Source: Gammaproteobacteria bacterium (GTDB lineage Bacteria > Pseudomonadota > Gammaproteobacteria > Eutrophobiales > Eutrophobiaceae). From it: DNA of 64,000 nt. The position numbers and the translations under genes were made by a program. A model generated the notes under the pieces. The model was not told the origin of the DNA. It did not search any database and was given only the letters and a program-made list of their open reading frames with translations. Positions 21,080 through 35,431 of the stretch are shown here, in pieces (positions within the stretch are counted from its first letter, which is position 1; every line of letters begins with the position of its first letter). The stretch is from positions 2,272,001-2,336,000 of the forward strand of contig CBDCTH010000012.1 in NCBI GenBank assembly GCA_965222155.1. Reading direction: 5' to 3'.

Positions 21080-21185
21080 GAGGAATTGGACAGGCTTGTC
21101 AGGACACGCTGTGAATACATCCCTGTACGCTTACCGGCAGCCATCCCTGGCTGCCGATAGTCCTGACAAGCCTGTCCAATTCCTC
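21080..21185. repeat. Conserved-core palindromic element, copy 1 (26-bp arms)
   Basis: Arms 21080-21105 and 21160-21185 are perfectly complementary; the core is shared with 35351-35406. Confidence 0.9.
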
Positions 21186-21198
21186 TTGCTGAAATTTA

Positions 21199-22467
21199 AT
21201 GAACAAATCGATTATTGAGAAAGACCCCAGTTGCAGGGGTGATTTTGACCCGAAGTCACTGTCGGCTGATGCCGCGCTGGAACAGATAAAGTCCAGAGCC
21301 ATCCGCATCAAGGGGATTGAAAAAATCGCTATTCGCGAGGCGCTGAACCGGATATTGGCCGAAAATATCCGTTCCCACATAAACGTGCCTACCGGCACCA
21401 ACTCCGCCATGGACGGTTACGCGGTCAACAGCGGGGATATTCCTTCCAGCGGCAGTGCCGAGTTGAGTGTGCTGGGTACGGCCTGGGCGGGCAAACCTTT
21501 CGGCGGCGAGTTGAGCGCCGGGAGCTGCGTGCGCATCATGACCGGGGCGATCATGCCGGATGGCGCCGATACCGTGATCATCCAGGAAGACGTGCAGGTC
21601 ACCGGCGCCGGCATAATCATCGATGGCGCTACCAGGAAAGGCGATAACGTACGCCAGGCAGGTGAAGACATTGCCGCCGGCGACCTCATTTTGACCAGGG
21701 GACGGCGCCTGAACCCTGCAGATATCGGCTTGATTGCCTCCCTGGGCATTGCCGAGGTGTGCGTGGTACGGCGCTTGCGGGTGGCGTTCTTTTCAACGGG
21801 GGATGAACTGCGTTCCATCGGGGAAACCCTGAGTGACGGCGCGATCTATGACAGTAATCGCTACACCTTGTACGGCATGCTGGAACGGATGGGCGCCGAT
21901 ATCATCGACATGGGCGTCATAAAAGATGACCGGGATGACCTGGAAGAGGCTTTTTCCATTGCTGCCGCCAATGCCGACGTCCTGATTACTTCGGGCGGCG
22001 TATCCGTCGGCGAGGCGGATTACATCAAGGAAATACTGGCTAAACTGGGGAAGGTGGACTTCTGGAAAGTAGCCATCAAACCCGGCCGGCCGCTTGCATT
22101 CGGACGGGTAGGCAATGCCCTATTTTTCGGCTTGCCGGGCAATCCCGTTTCCGTCATGGTCACATTTTACGAATTTGTTCAGCCGGCATTACGGAAAATG
22201 ATTGGAGAAGACGACGCCGGTGTGCTGTCCTTGAAAGCACGCTGTGATTCCAAACTGAAGAAACGCCCGGGCAGGGTTGAATACCAGCGTGGCATTCTGC
22301 AAAGAGACGAGGATGGAACTCTGGTGGTGGTGAAGACCGGCGCCCAGGGTTCGGGTATCCTCCGATCAATGTCACAGGCGAACTGTTTTATCATCCTTCC
22401 TCTGGATTCAGACGGAGTGGAACCGGGGACTTTTGTCGATATACAACCGTTCTCCGGCCTAGTTTGA
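21199..22467 (+). CDS. moeA: Molybdopterin molybdotransferase
   Basis: NSAMDGYAV, RIMTGA.MP.GADTV.IQE, FSTGDEL, ITSGGVSVG.AD, KPGRPLAFG, GLPGNPVS. Confidence 0.96.
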   Translation: MNKSIIEKDPSCRGDFDPKSLSADAALEQIKSRAIRIKGIEKIAIREALNRILAENIRSHINVPTGTNSAMDGYAVNSGDIPSSGSAELSVLGTAWAGKPFGGELSAGSCVRIMTGAIMPDGADTVIIQEDVQVTGAGIIIDGATRKGDNVRQAGEDIAAGDLILTRGRRLNPADIGLIASLGIAEVCVVRRLRVAFFSTGDELRSIGETLSDGAIYDSNRYTLYGMLERMGADIIDMGVIKDDRDDLEEAFSIAAANADVLITSGGVSVGEADYIKEILAKLGKVDFWKVAIKPGRPLAFGRVGNALFFGLPGNPVSVMVTFYEFVQPALRKMIGEDDAGVLSLKARCDSKLKKRPGRVEYQRGILQRDEDGTLVVVKTGAQGSGILRSMSQANCFIILPLDSDGVEPGTFVDIQPFSGLV

Positions 22468-22560
22468 CTGGATTTTCATCCTTTGGTCCGTTAACGGCAC
22501 ATCCTTGTGCCACTACTCGGAATTCGCCGAAATGACGAATTACAAGGAATGGTTATATAA

Positions 22561-22649
22561 CTGGATTCCGGCATTCGCCGGAATGACGTCCCGTTATTCT
22601 GGTGATAACTGTTTTTCCATCGTCATTCCGGCGAGTGCCGGAATCCAGT
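22561..22649. repeat. REP-like palindrome doublet between convergent moeA and pqqB
   Basis: CTGGATTCCGGCATTCGCCGGAATGACG and CGTCATTCCGGCGAGTGCCGGAATCCAG; a degenerate third copy at about 22467-22537. Confidence 0.85.
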
Positions 22650-22687
22650 GAAATAATTCACCACCTTCGATGTCACATTTTTAGTTT

Positions 22688-23617
22688 TCACAACTCAATA
22701 TCCATGCCGTCGTAAGACACTTCCCAGCCAGCATCTTCAACCGTTCGGCGTTCTGCACTGTTGGCAAACAGAATCGGGTTGGTCGTATTTATGTGGATAA
22801 AGATTTTTCTTTTTATCCCCAGGTCTTTCAATGCCGCAAGGGTGCCCTGTTCTCCCGAGACGCTGATATGCCCCATGCGCTGACCTGTTTTTATCCCCAC
22901 GCCGTCACGGATCATCTCATCGTCCACCCATAAGGTGCCGTCAAAGAAAATCAGGTCGGCGCCACTAATCTTCTCAGCCAGCTCCGGTGTCACCCGGGCA
23001 CAGGCCGGCATGTAGTAAAAGGACTTCCCGTTATTAGTATCTTCGACGTGCAGGGCAATCGTGTCTTCATCCACTGAGCCGAAATCCTTTCCTTTGCTTT
23101 CGTCTTCGAGCCATAAGGCCACCTTGCCCGGTACGGCGAAAGGTGTGATCCGTATATCCATGGAACTGCCGTCCGGTTTCAGCATCTCAAGGGGCTCATT
23201 CAACTGCATAGCTTCCCGGCTGACGAATTTCGGGTTCAATACGTTAAATATCGTATTGGCCTGGAGCACGCCCAGCACTCGTTGGGTAGCATAAATTCGC
23301 AGGGGTTGAGATTCACGTAAATTCAGCAGCCCGGCAACGTGGTCCACGTCGGCATTGGTCAGTACCGCCCCCATGATCGGGCTGTGCCGGAGGTCTTTTT
23401 TGGGATGCAGGATGTCGTTGTCGTTGATCTGCTGACGCAGGTCCGGGGAAGCATTAAACAGGTACCAGTCCGCTCCGTCGGCACTGACGGCAATGGACGA
23501 CTGGGTGCGCTGGGGAGCAGCAGGATCATCTTGCCTGGCTCGCCTGCTGTTCGGATGATTACAATTCCACTGTGGATAGCCGCCGCCGGCGGCAGCGCCT
23601 AATACCCTGACGTGCAT
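22688..23617 (-). CDS. pqqB: PQQ biosynthesis protein B
   Basis: VLGAAAGGGYPQWNCN, RTQSSIAVS, NASPDLRQQI, LTNADVDH.AGLL.LRE, GQRMGH, IHINTTNPIL. Confidence 0.96.
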   Translation of the reverse strand: MHVRVLGAAAGGGYPQWNCNHPNSRRARQDDPAAPQRTQSSIAVSADGADWYLFNASPDLRQQINDNDILHPKKDLRHSPIMGAVLTNADVDHVAGLLNLRESQPLRIYATQRVLGVLQANTIFNVLNPKFVSREAMQLNEPLEMLKPDGSSMDIRITPFAVPGKVALWLEDESKGKDFGSVDEDTIALHVEDTNNGKSFYYMPACARVTPELAEKISGADLIFFDGTLWVDDEMIRDGVGIKTGQRMGHISVSGEQGTLAALKDLGIKRKIFIHINTTNPILFANSAERRTVEDAGWEVSYDGMDIEL

Positions 23618-23643
23618 TGTGCAAACTCCTCATTCCTATGCAT

Positions 23644-23667
23644 GGGGACAGACTTAAGTCTGTCCCC
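23644..23667. repeat. Palindrome family GGGGACAGA(C/T)TTAA(G/A)TCTGTCCCC
   Basis: Perfect 24-bp palindrome; other copies at 4790, 51912, 56689 and 58537. Confidence 0.85.
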
Positions 23668-33719: not shown

Positions 33720-34080
33720 TGTGATTTGTGTATAGTAGAGGATATGGAATTCATGGTTTTATTAATGCTGGCTTCATTCACGCCAACCTTGAAATTTACT
33801 CTATAATGATTTGGAAAAAATTGATTTATTCTTCCCTGCCAGCCTGGATGGAATCTCGAATAAATCCTTAAGCGGCGTCACGCCAGTTCCAATCCTGCGA
33901 TTTATCGATAAACAAGAAAAGTCTTTTAACATGGGCGAGAGAGCTCAAAGAATAATACAGAAGTCAATCGATGGTTCCTTCGGATTGGTATTTTTCTCTG
34001 TTTCCGGTAGATCCGCCATTAAGGAAAGAATTTCATAACTGGCGACAAAACCTTCACAACGACTCATTACCTACATAACT

Positions 34081-34554
34081 ATGGCGGAATTAACACATTT
34101 CAATGAAACCGGAGAGGCGCACATGGTTGACGTCGGCGCCAAGGACGCGACTCATCGCATCGCCGTAGCGGAAGGGACGATCCGGATGCAGGACAGGACG
34201 CTGGCCCTGATCATGGAGGGAGGGCACAAGAAGGGGGACGTATTGGGGATTGCCAGGGTCGCCGGCATCATGGCTGCAAAAAAAACCGCGGAACTCATCC
34301 CGCTGTGCCACCCCCTCACCATCAGTCACATCGACATCAGTCTTGATCCCAGACCTGACGAGAGCGCCGTATACTGTCAGGCACGGGTCGAGACCATCGG
34401 TCCGACCGGGGTTGAAATGGAGGCGTTGAACGCCGTCCAGGTTACTCTGCTCACCATCTATGACATGTGTAAAGCCGTCGACCGGGGCATGAGCATCGAA
34501 TTTGTCAGACTCCTGAAAAAATCAGGGGGGAGGTCCGGGGACTGGGATAGGTAA
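34081..34554 (+). CDS. moaC: Cyclic pyranopterin monophosphate synthase
   Basis: LTHF...[54 protein letters not shown]. Confidence 0.97.
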
Positions 34555-34574
34555 GACGCGGGCCGTCGTTACTC

Positions 34575-34800
34575 CATTCCCGCACAAGCGGGAATCCATG
34601 GGTAAGTGGTTCCGGCGCGCTCATTGCGCCCATCCCCCTGCTCAACTCCATACAGAGCTTGCCCCTGCGGTTGTAAGCAGGGGGGCAGGCTCTGGGCGCA
34701 ACCCTTCGGGCGGCCTGCGTCCATGCACAAATTTGTCTGGAGCTGTTGAACAGTCGAGCCGCGCGAGACTGGCCCCGAAGGGGCAAAGTACAGGACGTAC
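34575..34800. repeat. Composite repeat sharing ~95 bp with the 19464-19934 element
   Basis: CATTCCCGCACAAGCGGGAATCCA followed by an inverted near-copy of ~19595-19690. Confidence 0.8.
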
Positions 34801-34854
34801 TTTGTAAATCGGCTATCCTGCCGATTTGTCATCGCATCAACTGAGAAATGCAGG

Positions 34855-35244
34855 CTAACTGTACTTGATATATTTAAATCTCTGATCGTCCGGTGTGCCT
34901 TCCAGGGCGCTATCTTCCTCCACCCCCGGCTGCCACATGACTACTTCCTCGATCTTCTTTGCCAGTTCGAAGTCCTTGTCGGTCACCCCTTTTGCCGCGT
35001 GGTTCACCAATTTGACGATGACAAACGCGTAGCTTGCCGTCAGGTCGGGATGATGCCAGGCCGCCTCAGCCAGGTGGCCGACGGTATTGATCACCATCAG
35101 CGTGCCTTTCCAGCCACTGGTCTTATACTTGCGCCGGATCCAGCCGTCCTCGTAATACCAGCTCGGCAATTCGTCCTTGAGTCGTTGTTCGATCTCATCC
35201 ACCTCATAGGTGGCATCTTTCGTTTCTTTACGCCACTTTGCCAT
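34855..35244 (-). CDS. Pterin-4a-carbinolamine dehydratase-like protein (H4MPT-cluster type)
   Basis: W...DGWIRRKYKT.GWK..LM, HLAEAAWHHPDL, HAAKGVTDKDFELA; adjacent to H4MPT synthesis genes. Confidence 0.88.
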   Translation of the reverse strand: MAKWRKETKDATYEVDEIEQRLKDELPSWYYEDGWIRRKYKTSGWKGTLMVINTVGHLAEAAWHHPDLTASYAFVIVKLVNHAAKGVTDKDFELAKKIEEVVMWQPGVEEDSALEGTPDDQRFKYIKYS

Positions 35245-35325
35245 AGGATTTCCTCACAATGGAAATTACAAAAACAATTTACTTGACCCGGATATTGTAC
35301 CAGATCGCTGACGAGTAGATAGTTC

Positions 35326-35431
35326 ACAGGTTGGGATAGCATTTTCAAGAACGTCGACAGCCAAGGATGGCTGGCGCTGAGCGTACACGGATGTATTCAC
35401 AGCGTGTCTTGAAAATGCTATCCCAACCTGT
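35326..35431. repeat. Conserved-core palindromic element, copy 2 (25-bp arms)
   Basis: Arms 35326-35350 and 35407-35431 are perfectly complementary. The core is a near reverse complement of 21105-21160, and the right arm contains the mfnB stop codon. Confidence 0.9.

Follow-up and report, generated by a model that had tools for sequence, protein, structure and literature searches.

Two compact palindromic repeats with co-evolving arms and probable kinship to the YPAL and TwoAYGGAY repeat type in a gammaproteobacterial genome

The window, a 64-kb stretch of DNA from an uncultured gammaproteobacterium, contains two palindromic elements of 106 bp each in mutually inverted orientation. Copy 1 spans positions 21080–21185 with its GGA loops on the minus strand (96.8 bits with the family covariance model R1), and copy 2 spans positions 35326–35431 with its GGA loops on the plus strand (86.4 bits with R1). 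Copy 1 lies between mobB (20524–21066, plus strand), whose stop codon is 13 nt away, and moeA (21199–22467, plus strand). Copy 2 is flanked by a pterin-4a-carbinolamine dehydratase gene (34855–35244, minus strand) and by mfnB, the 4-HFC-P synthase ORF (35418–36131, minus strand), whose stop codon it overlaps such that one arm also encodes the end of mfnB (D R L G + TAG, 35418–35431, minus strand). For both copies the GGA strand is antisense to the host operon.

Each element folds into a basal helix, formed by the outer arms, that closes a three-way junction bearing two short hairpins, A and B; the core between the arms comprises ~55 nt. The arms of copy 1 (21080–21105 and 21160–21185, pair I5) are complementary at 26/26 positions and those of copy 2 (35326–35350 and 35407–35431, pair I7) at 25/25. 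Hairpin A of copy 1 (21135–21156, minus strand, CAGGGAUG) has a 9-bp stem and a GGGA loop, and that of copy 2 (35358–35373, plus strand) reads CAGCCA AGGA UGGCUG. Hairpin B is located within a near-invariant block, which occupies 21105–21131 in copy 1 (minus strand, GUACAGGGAUGUAU; hairpin 21116–21127) and 35380–35406 in copy 2 (plus strand; hairpin 35384–35395, UACA CGGA UGUA). The 27-nt CACGCTGTGAATACATCCSTGTACGCT occurs exactly twice in the window, with none expected in 100 shuffles, and CAGCCATCCYTGGCTG is identical in the two copies. The predicted free energies are −61 to −76 kcal/mol on either strand, with z values of −10 to −13 relative to shuffled sequences. The first-pass annotation had described the two opposite copies, their mismatch-free arms, the shared core and the arm lying over the last codons of mfnB, all of which agree with the present analysis. 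It had also placed relatives near 18450, 22500 and 43620. The family covariance model yields nothing at the first and last of these, and only a 9.8-bit match (E = 3.4) at 22477–22551; all three carry isolated CANGGATG words, a motif found 20 times in the window (12.1 ± 3.7 expected), four of them inside copies 1 and 2.

Both hairpin loops display CANGGAUG on the same strand, minus for copy 1 and plus for copy 2, and the two GGA triplets are spaced by 24 nt. The loop sequence fits the CsrA/RsmA consensus (A/U)CANGGANG(U/A), and hairpin B matches RUACARGGAUGU, both as quoted in an excerpt of PMC6849547. Strict AYGGAY accounts for only one of the four loops of the window copies and, among the matches listed, for 27 of 103 hairpin-B loops; family-wide the loop reads ANGGAY, most often as AGGGAU.

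A scan of species-representative genomes with a 17-nt core pattern located the repeat in at least 123 places across many gammaproteobacterial genera, those among the matches listed including Microbulbifer, Marinobacter, Halomonas, Thiogranum, Sedimenticola, Oceanisphaera, Cellvibrio and Thiofilum. The matches listed comprise 119 non-redundant sites, of which three are chance matches, leaving 116 family copies. Arms of at least 20 bp are present in 77 of the 116 copies, and are perfect in 37 of these 77; the basal helix reaches 52 bp outside the window. Sequence identity in the block around hairpin B (~26–27 nt) is 92.5% family-wide vs 36% in the arms, and the hairpin itself has only 4–5 bp. 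Some copies occur as doublets (L032, L059, L066 and the divergent L076) or arrays (six copies at L051, and L067), six variants carry extra GGA hairpins (L027, L078, L087, L050, L046 and L122), and others lie within or at the ends of coding sequences (L064 and the mfnB tails). The element 3′ of mfnB is apparently retained in relatives whose MfnB is only 75–81% identical, which points to a long stay at this site and against turnover.

The variable arms form a co-evolving stem and are part of the repeat, not copies of the insertion site. In an alignment of 30 of the listed sequences, selected as having at least 21 of 24 arm positions paired, all 24 basal pairs change on both sides, as do 8 of the 10 pairs of hairpin A. 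Paired cells amount to 94.7%, vs 63.6% in shuffles and 31–43% in slid controls, and the 380 double-change cells (102 in shuffles) were reached by none of 500 shuffles. This bears out the suggestion of a structured nucleic acid with a covarying closing stem. Compensatory stem change is also known for REPINs. Among 49 copy pairs with 5′ arms 60–99% identical, 305 changes are compensated, 29 are uncompensated double changes and 57 are one-sided; two Microbulbifer species carry the element upstream of rpe, apparently at orthologous sites, and differ there by four pair changes, all compensated, and one one-sided change. The arms diverge rapidly through paired compensatory changes, and they move with the element. 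The arms of the two window copies, described earlier as largely unrelated, are in fact identical at 15 of 26 positions in register, with nine fully compensated pair changes, which places them in the top 3.3% of 4753 family arm pairs (mean identity 34%). Nor are the arms locus-specific: the copy 2 arm is identical at 24 of 26 positions to that of L041, which lies in another genome between two FAA-hydrolase genes, has different flanking genes and is non-orthologous. Identical or near-identical arms also recur at several loci of one genome (e.g., L003/L009/L046/L057 and the L099 group), and arm positions −2, −8, −17 and −18 are conserved family-wide.

The mismatches tolerated in the stem are strand-asymmetric. 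Of 72 ungapped arm mismatches, 42 are A·C on the CATCC strand, equivalent to G·U on the GGA strand, and only 11 are G·T. In the model alignment (109 rows), the GGA-strand stems contain 122 G·U vs 33 A·C mismatches, with an excess of G·U in 59 copies and of A·C in 12. The bias persists whether the copies are sense (23:5) or antisense (16:6) to the host genes. This asymmetry shows that the constraint falls on the single-stranded fold of the GGA strand regardless of the direction of neighboring genes, and the strand on which the element was first described is probably not the informative one. The asymmetry is not proof of RNA, because single-stranded DNA likewise accommodates G·T. By hand tally, 22 copies are sense and 16 antisense to co-directional neighbors (p = 0.42), an unbiased orientation that fits poorly with a strand-dependent cis-regulatory role. 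No sigma-70-like promoter was found near the window copies, nor a terminator of the element's own or conserved sequence upstream of it.

The YPAL elements reportedly go back to De Gregorio et al. 2006. These Yersinia palindromic sequences, also termed RU-2 (Delihas 2007 and 2008, as excerpted), correspond to the Rfam sRNA family Ysr224 (RF02770), an entry that derives from Yersinia RNA-seq and is modeled on the CATCC strand, opposite to the GGA strand of the window elements. Ysr224 is the top Rfam match of the core alone (26.5 and 28.0 bits, E = 8e-5 and 3e-5; threshold 70). The whole elements match the TwoAYGGAY RNA motif (RF01731; Weinberg et al. 2010; RMfam paper, PMC4333381) in alignments that span the entire model and include both loops. 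Their scores, 31.8 and 33.1 bits vs a gathering score of 43, are about level with those of spurious long-hairpin families (HIV_POL-1_SL, 33.3 bits; miRNA precursors, 25–30 bits), and only one of 20 related loci matches TwoAYGGAY at E ≤ 1. By eye, the RU-2/YPAL centre printed in the portion of PMC2759123 available contains gcgccaaggatggcgc and ctacatggatgtatttacggcg in the same order as the window elements, and the two share a G+C-rich hairpin with an AGGA loop and a CGAGC linker followed by UACAUGGAUGUA and UUUACGGCG. The first-pass annotation had asked whether the core belongs to an already characterised family; in substance it does, given the below-threshold RF01731 and RF02770 matches and, by eye, the shared centre of the printed RU-2/YPAL repeat, although by score alone both matches fall short. 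The window palindromes are therefore best regarded as probable compact (~106 nt) members of the YPAL/Ysr224/TwoAYGGAY repeat type.

Like the window family, YPAL elements have long flanking inverted repeats and occur as multiple intergenic copies near stop codons, some of them incorporated into ORFs. They differ in their length of ~168 bp (or 130 bp), in having internal inverted repeats plus extra termini where those of the window elements extend to the ends, in their Enterobacterales hosts, and in the variable target duplications reported in an excerpt of PMC2229807, none being seen at the window copies. TwoAYGGAY shares with the family a pair of consecutive hairpins borne on one long basal stem of low conservation, CAnGGAUG loops in the window elements, many copies per genome with doublets, arrays and extra-GGA-hairpin variants, and, in some copies (4/30 in alignment A2), a tandem G·A within the stem of hairpin A; clustering of its copies is reported in a 2026 preprint (10.64898/2026.09.22.753630). 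Unlike TwoAYGGAY, the family has ANGGAY rather than AYGGAY loops and a short hairpin B in an invariant block, and the 5′ pentamer repeat arrays of Pseudomonas TwoAYGGAY are not enriched here (1.28 upstream vs 1.31 downstream per 200 nt). The CGTC-1 REP-dimer palindromes of Halothiobacillus neapolitanus may offer a lead: their 41-bp consensus (GGGaaGCTT-GAAAaACC .. attcacgGGTaTTTCgAAGC-gCCC), in the part of PMC3733652 available, resembles by eye the family arm consensus and UUCACAGCG junction, but there the palindrome is described as a host for REP dimers, unlike the window family. REPINs/REP-RAYT and classical MITEs (Correia, ERIC) are likewise small intergenic palindromic repeats with long-hairpin folds, whereas the window family has a conserved centre and free arms and lacks a GTAG tag, nearby tyrosine transposase, fixed terminal repeats and TA duplication. 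The Csr/Rsm decoy sRNAs CsrB, RsmY and RsmZ also present GGA in hairpin loops fitting the quoted consensus, but each is a single regulated gene, whereas the element is a dispersed repeat with only two sites.

We consider it reasonably probable that the elements are compact members of a multi-copy gammaproteobacterial palindromic repeat family, kin to YPAL/RU-2 and TwoAYGGAY, which has mobile-like spread and putative CsrA/RsmA-clamped loops in its GGA-strand RNA. That RNA would be the active form, and a single CsrA/RsmA dimer may clamp both of its loops, the RNA acting as a decoy or as a binding site at its own locus, while the family would spread like a non-autonomous mobile element. From loop sequence we infer that CsrA/RsmA could bind the GGA loops of the family, and such binding has been proposed for TwoAYGGAY (PMC4333381 and the 2026 preprint); the 64-kb window contains no CsrA-like N-terminal motif. 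GGA-strand transcription at the window copies is doubtful, and locally these more likely serve only as very stable intercistronic hairpins, because both are in operons with the non-GGA strand in the mRNA.

A possible, though clearly less probable, explanation for the family is a cis-acting RNA hairpin, transcribed along with its neighbors in either orientation and devoid of protein-specific loop function, in which a perfect stem of at least 25 bp keeps 3′ exonucleases from the cistron upstream or provides an RNase III site that uncouples neighboring cistrons. Such a role was proposed for YPAL, said in the available part of PMC2229807 to be co-transcribed and possibly to alter the stability of upstream transcripts. 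The position of both window copies directly at stop codons in operons, the fold stability on either strand and the unbiased orientation agree with it, and a sequence-free stem far beyond folding needs would suit a reader of duplex RNA. It leaves unexplained, however, the near-invariant 26-nt block, the conserved loops, and the G·U bias that persists even with the other strand as mRNA. Rather unlikely is a selfish, DNA-level miniature element whose GGA-strand hairpin forms as single-stranded DNA and is mobilised by an enzyme whose gene lies at another genomic location, the loops and invariant block being its recognition site rather than CsrA sites. Multiple copies in doublets and arrays, near-equal orientations, copies in coding sequences, a wobble bias independent of host transcription, the missing promoter and upstream conservation, the recent mobility of YPAL reported in the excerpt of PMC2229807, and outer-flank direct repeats of at least 8 nt in 4 of 67 listed copies (0.8 expected) speak for such an element. 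Yet no transposase family is among the Pfam matches of 224 flanking ORFs, arm ends show no target-site duplication above control, the copy 3′ of mfnB appears to be a long resident, and it would be by chance that both loops fit the CsrA consensus exactly. The mechanism put forward in the first-pass annotation, insertion of the ~55-nt core with inverted duplication of the target, is rejected as highly improbable: mismatch-free arms that differ between the window copies, the arm overlapping a gene end and YPAL targets reported, in excerpted sources, to cover or border on dyad-symmetric regions would suit it, but the arm shared with L041, the arms common to several loci, their positional conservation, the lack of target duplication above control and, in the available part of Di Nocera et al. 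2013 (PMC3733652), the finding of similar palindromes only together with their inner repeats all argue against it. The repeat type as such appears to be already known, and the window elements may be read as a compact form of a mobile-like structured repeat family whose arms belong to the repeat itself.

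The two 106-bp repeats with mismatch-free arms reported by the first-pass annotation are real. Copy 1 (21080–21185) separates the plus-strand genes mobB and moeA, starting 13 nt past the mobB stop codon. Copy 2 (35326–35431) is flanked by two minus-strand genes, mfnB (encoding 4-HFC-P synthase) and one for a pterin-4a-carbinolamine dehydratase, and overlaps the mfnB stop codon. The arms extend to the recognisable ends of the 106-bp unit and are complementary at 26/26 positions in copy 1 and 25/25 in copy 2. The copies are separated by ~14 kb and share a 27-nt block with a single difference, a match absent from shuffled sequences. 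Each copy folds into a three-way junction comprising a long basal stem and two small hairpins, A and B (z of −10 to −13 on either strand). The strand with the sense of the operon mRNA presents CAUCC loops in both copies, and the opposite strand, referred to here as the GGA strand, presents CANGGAUG in both loops. The two copies probably act locally as a very stable intercistronic hairpin, with the mRNA carrying the CAUCC strand. No replication-direction bias is evident from these copies, which are mutually inverted with no GC-skew switch between them.

Species-representative genomes were scanned with the core pattern AATACATCCNTGTACGC, which occurs in at least 123 places. The genera among the matches listed are Microbulbifer, Marinobacter, Halomonas, Thiogranum, Sedimenticola, Oceanisphaera, Alishewanella, Cellvibrio and Thiofilum, together with many uncultured Gammaproteobacteria. 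Enough flanking sequence was available for 119 non-redundant listed matches, three of which (loci L008, L023 and L082) are evident chance hits, leaving 116. By ungapped extension, 77 of the 116 listed copies have arms of at least 20 bp (37 perfect, 35 with one or two mismatches and 5 with more); the other 39 include truncated and degenerate copies and large-insertion variants bearing extra CATCC hairpins. Among the matches listed, the arms have a median length of 27 bp and a maximum of 52 bp, and cores are most often 52, 54 or 53 nt long. A distant plasmid search yielded a single partial match, on a Halomonas megaplasmid, which is a true copy: it shares the core but differs in its hairpin-A stem and has unrelated arms. 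A full-text literature search for core 9-mers returned noise only.

The covariation analysis started from 31 copies that have a core of 52 nt and form 21 or more of 24 arm pairs in a fixed register; one with an indel was removed. The 30 retained copies align without gaps, and their selection for pairing raises the percentage of paired cells without inflating covariation. Two-sided changes occur at all 24 basal pairs and at 8 of the 10 hairpin-A pairs. The fraction of paired cells is 94.7%, compared with 63.6% after shuffling and 31–43% with slid partners, and double-change cells number 380 versus 102 in shuffles. A covariance model, R1, was built from this alignment with the structure set by hand and scores 96.8 and 86.4 bits on the GGA strands of the two window copies. 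The covariation upholds a freely covarying closing stem, one of two explanations proposed earlier for the differing arms. The next-best R1 matches in the window (≤31 bits) are other palindromic repeats, aligned via the stem alone. Core relatives had also been suggested near 18450, 22500 and 43620; R1 finds none at 18450 or 43620, and 22477–22551 reaches only 9.8 bits (E = 3.4). By this measure none of the three sites belongs to the family. Across the source sequences of the listed loci, R1 gives 121 matches in 100 of 125, many of them overlooked by the exact pattern and many less than 2 kb apart. These include doublets at L032, L059, L066 and L076 (divergent) and arrays at L051 (six copies) and L067. 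The L051 copies (515–1309) are spaced ~117 nt apart, four on one strand followed by two on the other, and the array is flanked by a PEP-mutase/isocitrate-lyase-family gene and a citrate-synthase-family gene.

The second explanation was that insertion makes an inverted duplication of the target, which would yield arms that are perfect at each locus and differ between loci. In pairwise comparison the arms are indeed only 36–37% identical on average, whereas hairpin A averages 65% and the block surrounding hairpin B 92.5%. However, counting from the junction, arm positions −2, −8, −17 and −18 are conserved in 60–81 of 98 copies among the matches listed, and the same arm recurs at multiple loci within several genomes. 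Identity to the copy 2 arm is 24/26 positions at L041, 20/26 at L005 and 19/26 at L021; L041 sits between two FAA-hydrolase genes rather than at mfnB, and both its differences from copy 2 are compensated. Copies 1 and 2 differ at 9 basal pairs, all compensated, and by one further one-sided change. Comparison of 49 copy pairs whose arms are related shows 305 compensated positions, alongside 29 double changes without compensation and 57 changes on one side only. Shared arms at non-orthologous, unrelated loci, the conserved arm positions and the compensated changes therefore rule out arms derived from the target at insertion. The perfect but differing arms turn out to reflect ordinary compensatory evolution of the basal helix in a known kind of repeat, and hence give no pointer to a new insertion mechanism.

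The best 40 MfnB homologues (75–84% identical) agree up to ...IRKLIP and then diverge, their C-terminal tails forming a small number of classes. At least 8 of these 40 (a class within homologues P0002–P0028) have tails like ...DRLGWAFKDTL or ...DRLGWAFKDSL, and the window mfnB end reads ...DRLG*HFQDTL* (asterisks, stops) in the same frame. DRLG is arm-encoded, and DTL-stop is specified jointly by the arm end and the beginning of the core. The translated arm and core tails thus place the same element, in the same orientation, at the mfnB 3′ end of related genomes, where, judging from these tails, the mfnB ORF continues across the arm and enters the core. The mfnB stop of the window arises from a TGG-to-TAG difference within the arm, and the opposite arm holds the corresponding change. 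As read from the encoded proteins, this pattern indicates long residence of the element at mfnB. Such elements rewrite gene ends: the arm supplies the stop of the window mfnB and the four codons before it. Another recurrent MfnB tail, ...SVNDLLQ[Y], may stem from a different repeat. At locus L064, a family copy (1469–1568) lies in frame and stop-free within a single ORF (1–1956), which encodes an acyl-CoA carboxylase subunit; the copy occupies the linker joining the biotin carboxylase domains to the biotinyl domain.

A comparison with Rfam gave no gathering-level match in the window; the element matches two characterised families, TwoAYGGAY and Ysr224, below threshold. The whole element aligns on the GGA strand with the full TwoAYGGAY model (RF01731), including both loops, at 31.8 and 33.1 bits (cut-off 43), a level at which spurious long-hairpin families also score on the whole element. 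In 20 related loci, TwoAYGGAY detected only one further element with E ≤ 1. Once the arms are removed, Ysr224 (RF02770, cut-off 70 bits) becomes the top Rfam match; it lies on the other strand and scores 26.5 bits (E = 8e-5) and 28.0 bits (E = 3e-5). This match spans model positions 47–107 with obvious sequence similarity; the whole element scores 17.7 and 16.4 bits against the same model.

The architecture of TwoAYGGAY RNAs is reproduced here by single-sequence folds and by the covarying basal stem and hairpin A, and the multi-copy occurrence with frequent doublets described in a 2026 TwoAYGGAY preprint is likewise found. However, TwoAYGGAY has AYGGAY terminal loops whereas those of the present family are ANGGAY, and the arrays of 5′ pentamer repeats that accompany TwoAYGGAY loci in Pseudomonas are not enriched beside the elements here. 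TwoAYGGAY has been reported to match the CsrA site, with an external stem called poorly conserved (PMC4333381). Ysr224 is listed as a multi-copy, temperature-responsive Yersinia sRNA. The 168-nt Y. pestis RU-2 repeat, as printed in Delihas 2007, is YPAL, and its centre, gcgccaaggatggcgc, a cgagc linker and ctacatggatgtatttacggcg, is by eye the same module as here. PMC2229807 describes YPAL as intergenic, mobile and co-transcribed, with target duplications of 3–26 bp and targets at dyad symmetries. For YPAL, insertion is close downstream of stop codons; the position of the window copies, 13 nt past one stop codon and overlapping another, would fit such placement. The YPAL/RU-2 unit is ~168 bp (or 130 bp) long with internal inverted repeats and non-palindromic termini, whereas the present element is 106 bp long with arms that reach its ends. 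YPAL/RU-2 has been described as a miniature insertion sequence and Ysr224 as an sRNA, and CsrA binding has been proposed for TwoAYGGAY-type RNAs; all three appear to represent a single superfamily seen from opposite strands. Our literature search found no statement of this link and no paper in which YPAL and CsrA occur together; the 2026 preprint does not mention YPAL, Yersinia, MITE or Ysr224.

Di Nocera et al. 2013 (PMC3733652) give a consensus for a Halothiobacillus palindrome and report that such palindromes are not found without the inner repeat; as given there, the consensus resembles the arms of the present family and is a lead only. REPIN/REP-RAYT elements have conserved arms, a GTAG tag and a tyrosine transposase, whereas the arms here are 36% identical on average, and no transposase domain occurs among the Pfam hits of 224 flanking ORFs.

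The YPAL-like variable target duplications of 3–26 bp are not seen here. At the arm ends, 67 copies follow the control distribution for target-site duplication. In the outer 40-nt flanks, direct repeats of at least 8 nt occur in 4 of the 67 copies versus 0.8 expected, a weak excess, and the outer flanks of the window copies have common words of only 4 nt. Locus L031 carries a 10-nt direct repeat, GTTCATGAAC, itself palindromic, 39 nt to the left and 27 nt to the right of the arms. It resembles the variable duplications at dyad symmetries described for YPAL; 8-nt cases occur in L022, L026 and L071.

The loops on the GGA strand resemble CsrA/RsmA sites. The window loop word CANGGAUG matches the RsmE-derived consensus (A/U)CANGGANG(U/A), and hairpin B (GUACANGGAUGU) matches the SELEX consensus RUACARGGAUGU, both strings being as quoted in PMC6849547. 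The two GGA triplets are 24 nt apart in the 30-sequence alignment. The four window loops are AGGGAU, AGGGAU, AAGGAU and ACGGAU, one of which fits AYGGAY. Among the copies listed, the hairpin-B words (n = 103) are AGGGAU in 66, AUGGAU in 16, ACGGAU in 10, AAGGAU in 8 and others in 3; AYGGAY fits 27/103 hairpin-B and 37/103 hairpin-A loops, and ANGGAY is general. GGA loops of the kind found in Csr/Rsm decoy sRNAs are present in both window copies. Consensus scans near copies 1 and 2 for the promoter and terminator that such sRNAs carry found nothing fitting. A CsrA N-terminal motif was not found within the 64-kb window. Two CANGGATG words, 45 nt apart on the plus strand (18452–18459 and 18497–18504), may be CsrA-type sites. 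They lie in the leader upstream of fdhD (18579, plus strand), past the terminator-like hairpin that follows moaA; this leader (18436–18582) folds no better than shuffles (z = −0.6).

The basal helix shows which strand is under constraint. In an ungapped count of listed copies with arms of at least 18 bp, 72 of 2121 arm pairs are mismatched; in 42 of these the CATCC strand has A·C or C·A, equivalent to G·U on the GGA strand, and in only 11 it has G·T or T·G. The model-based alignment of 109 near-complete rows contains 122 G·U and 33 A·C pairs; it is biased towards G·U, yet the unbiased ungapped count is concordant. Per copy, G·U pairs are more numerous in 59, A·C pairs in 12, and 39 are tied. 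Orientation was tallied by hand for elements between co-directional, Pfam-supported neighbours drawn from 224 candidate ORFs, in place of a noisy earlier call by longest ORF. No orientation bias relative to neighbouring genes was found (GGA strand sense in 22 and antisense in 16, binomial p = 0.42), and both window copies are antisense. The G·U bias occurs in both classes (23:5 for the 21 copies in sense, 16:6 for the 16 in antisense), and the constraint is thus tied to the element's own strand and not to host transcription. It fits a self-expressed RNA, a strand-specific single-stranded intermediate or inheritance from active master copies, and the asymmetry cannot separate RNA from single-stranded DNA. 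Several copies lie near molybdenum-cofactor genes (L007, moeA; L018, moaE; L052, molybdopterin oxidoreductase; copy 1, mobB–moeA), which looks like chance since other neighbours include housekeeping genes of all kinds.

The window contains other repeats. Head-to-head inverted pairs of a short repeat, consisting of CGTC, ATTCCGGC, a 4-nt loop, GCCGGAAT and CCA, occur at 22553–22656, 40768–40892 and 63403–63512. These pairs resemble Neisseria RS-type repeats. They also fit the description of CGTC-1 REP dimers in PMC3733652. A third palindromic family (33600–33720, 39235–39326 and 42798–42875) has conserved arms (TTGGGGTCAGAGTAAAA...) and variable centres, the usual MITE-like pattern, whereas the GGA-hairpin element shows the reverse. 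A 2555-aa ORF on the minus strand (25662–33329; G+C 64–66% versus ~53% around it) contains internally repeated, G+C-rich hairpin-like segments with identical weak R1 scores at 27828, 29328 and 31133. Short hairpins 4.8 kb apart (51910–51941 and 56687–56718) also share identical weak R1 scores, which suggests a duplicated segment or another small repeat.

The initial observation is real and its target-duplication interpretation fails; the element belongs to a known superfamily, as a compact member that scores below Rfam thresholds. It is a structured, palindromic repeat whose two-hairpin centre is conserved and whose basal helix is held by pairing alone, and it is under a strand-specific constraint. 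The family has no orientation preference relative to host genes, clusters, and resides for long periods at some sites. This compact subfamily is common in marine and sediment Gammaproteobacteria yet falls below Rfam thresholds, and its strand-specific G·U bias provides a concrete handle on which strand matters.

The GGA-strand form is probably the active one, and its two loops would bind a CsrA/RsmA dimer; the over-long perfect helix may serve a duplex-RNA reader or propagation of the element. A bolder and rather unlikely extension is that the whole YPAL/Ysr224/TwoAYGGAY-like superfamily is a self-propagating CsrA trap, in which GGA-strand RNA or single strand is both functional and propagating and the over-long stem, perfect but free in sequence, gives RNase III or another duplex-RNA reader something to grip. 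Wobble tolerance would then track the strand of the element and not host transcription, because the same strand both functions and propagates. If such a trap exists, cleavage of the over-long stem would free a ~55-nt two-loop module from any host transcript, and the copy number of the element would set the free CsrA level of the cell.
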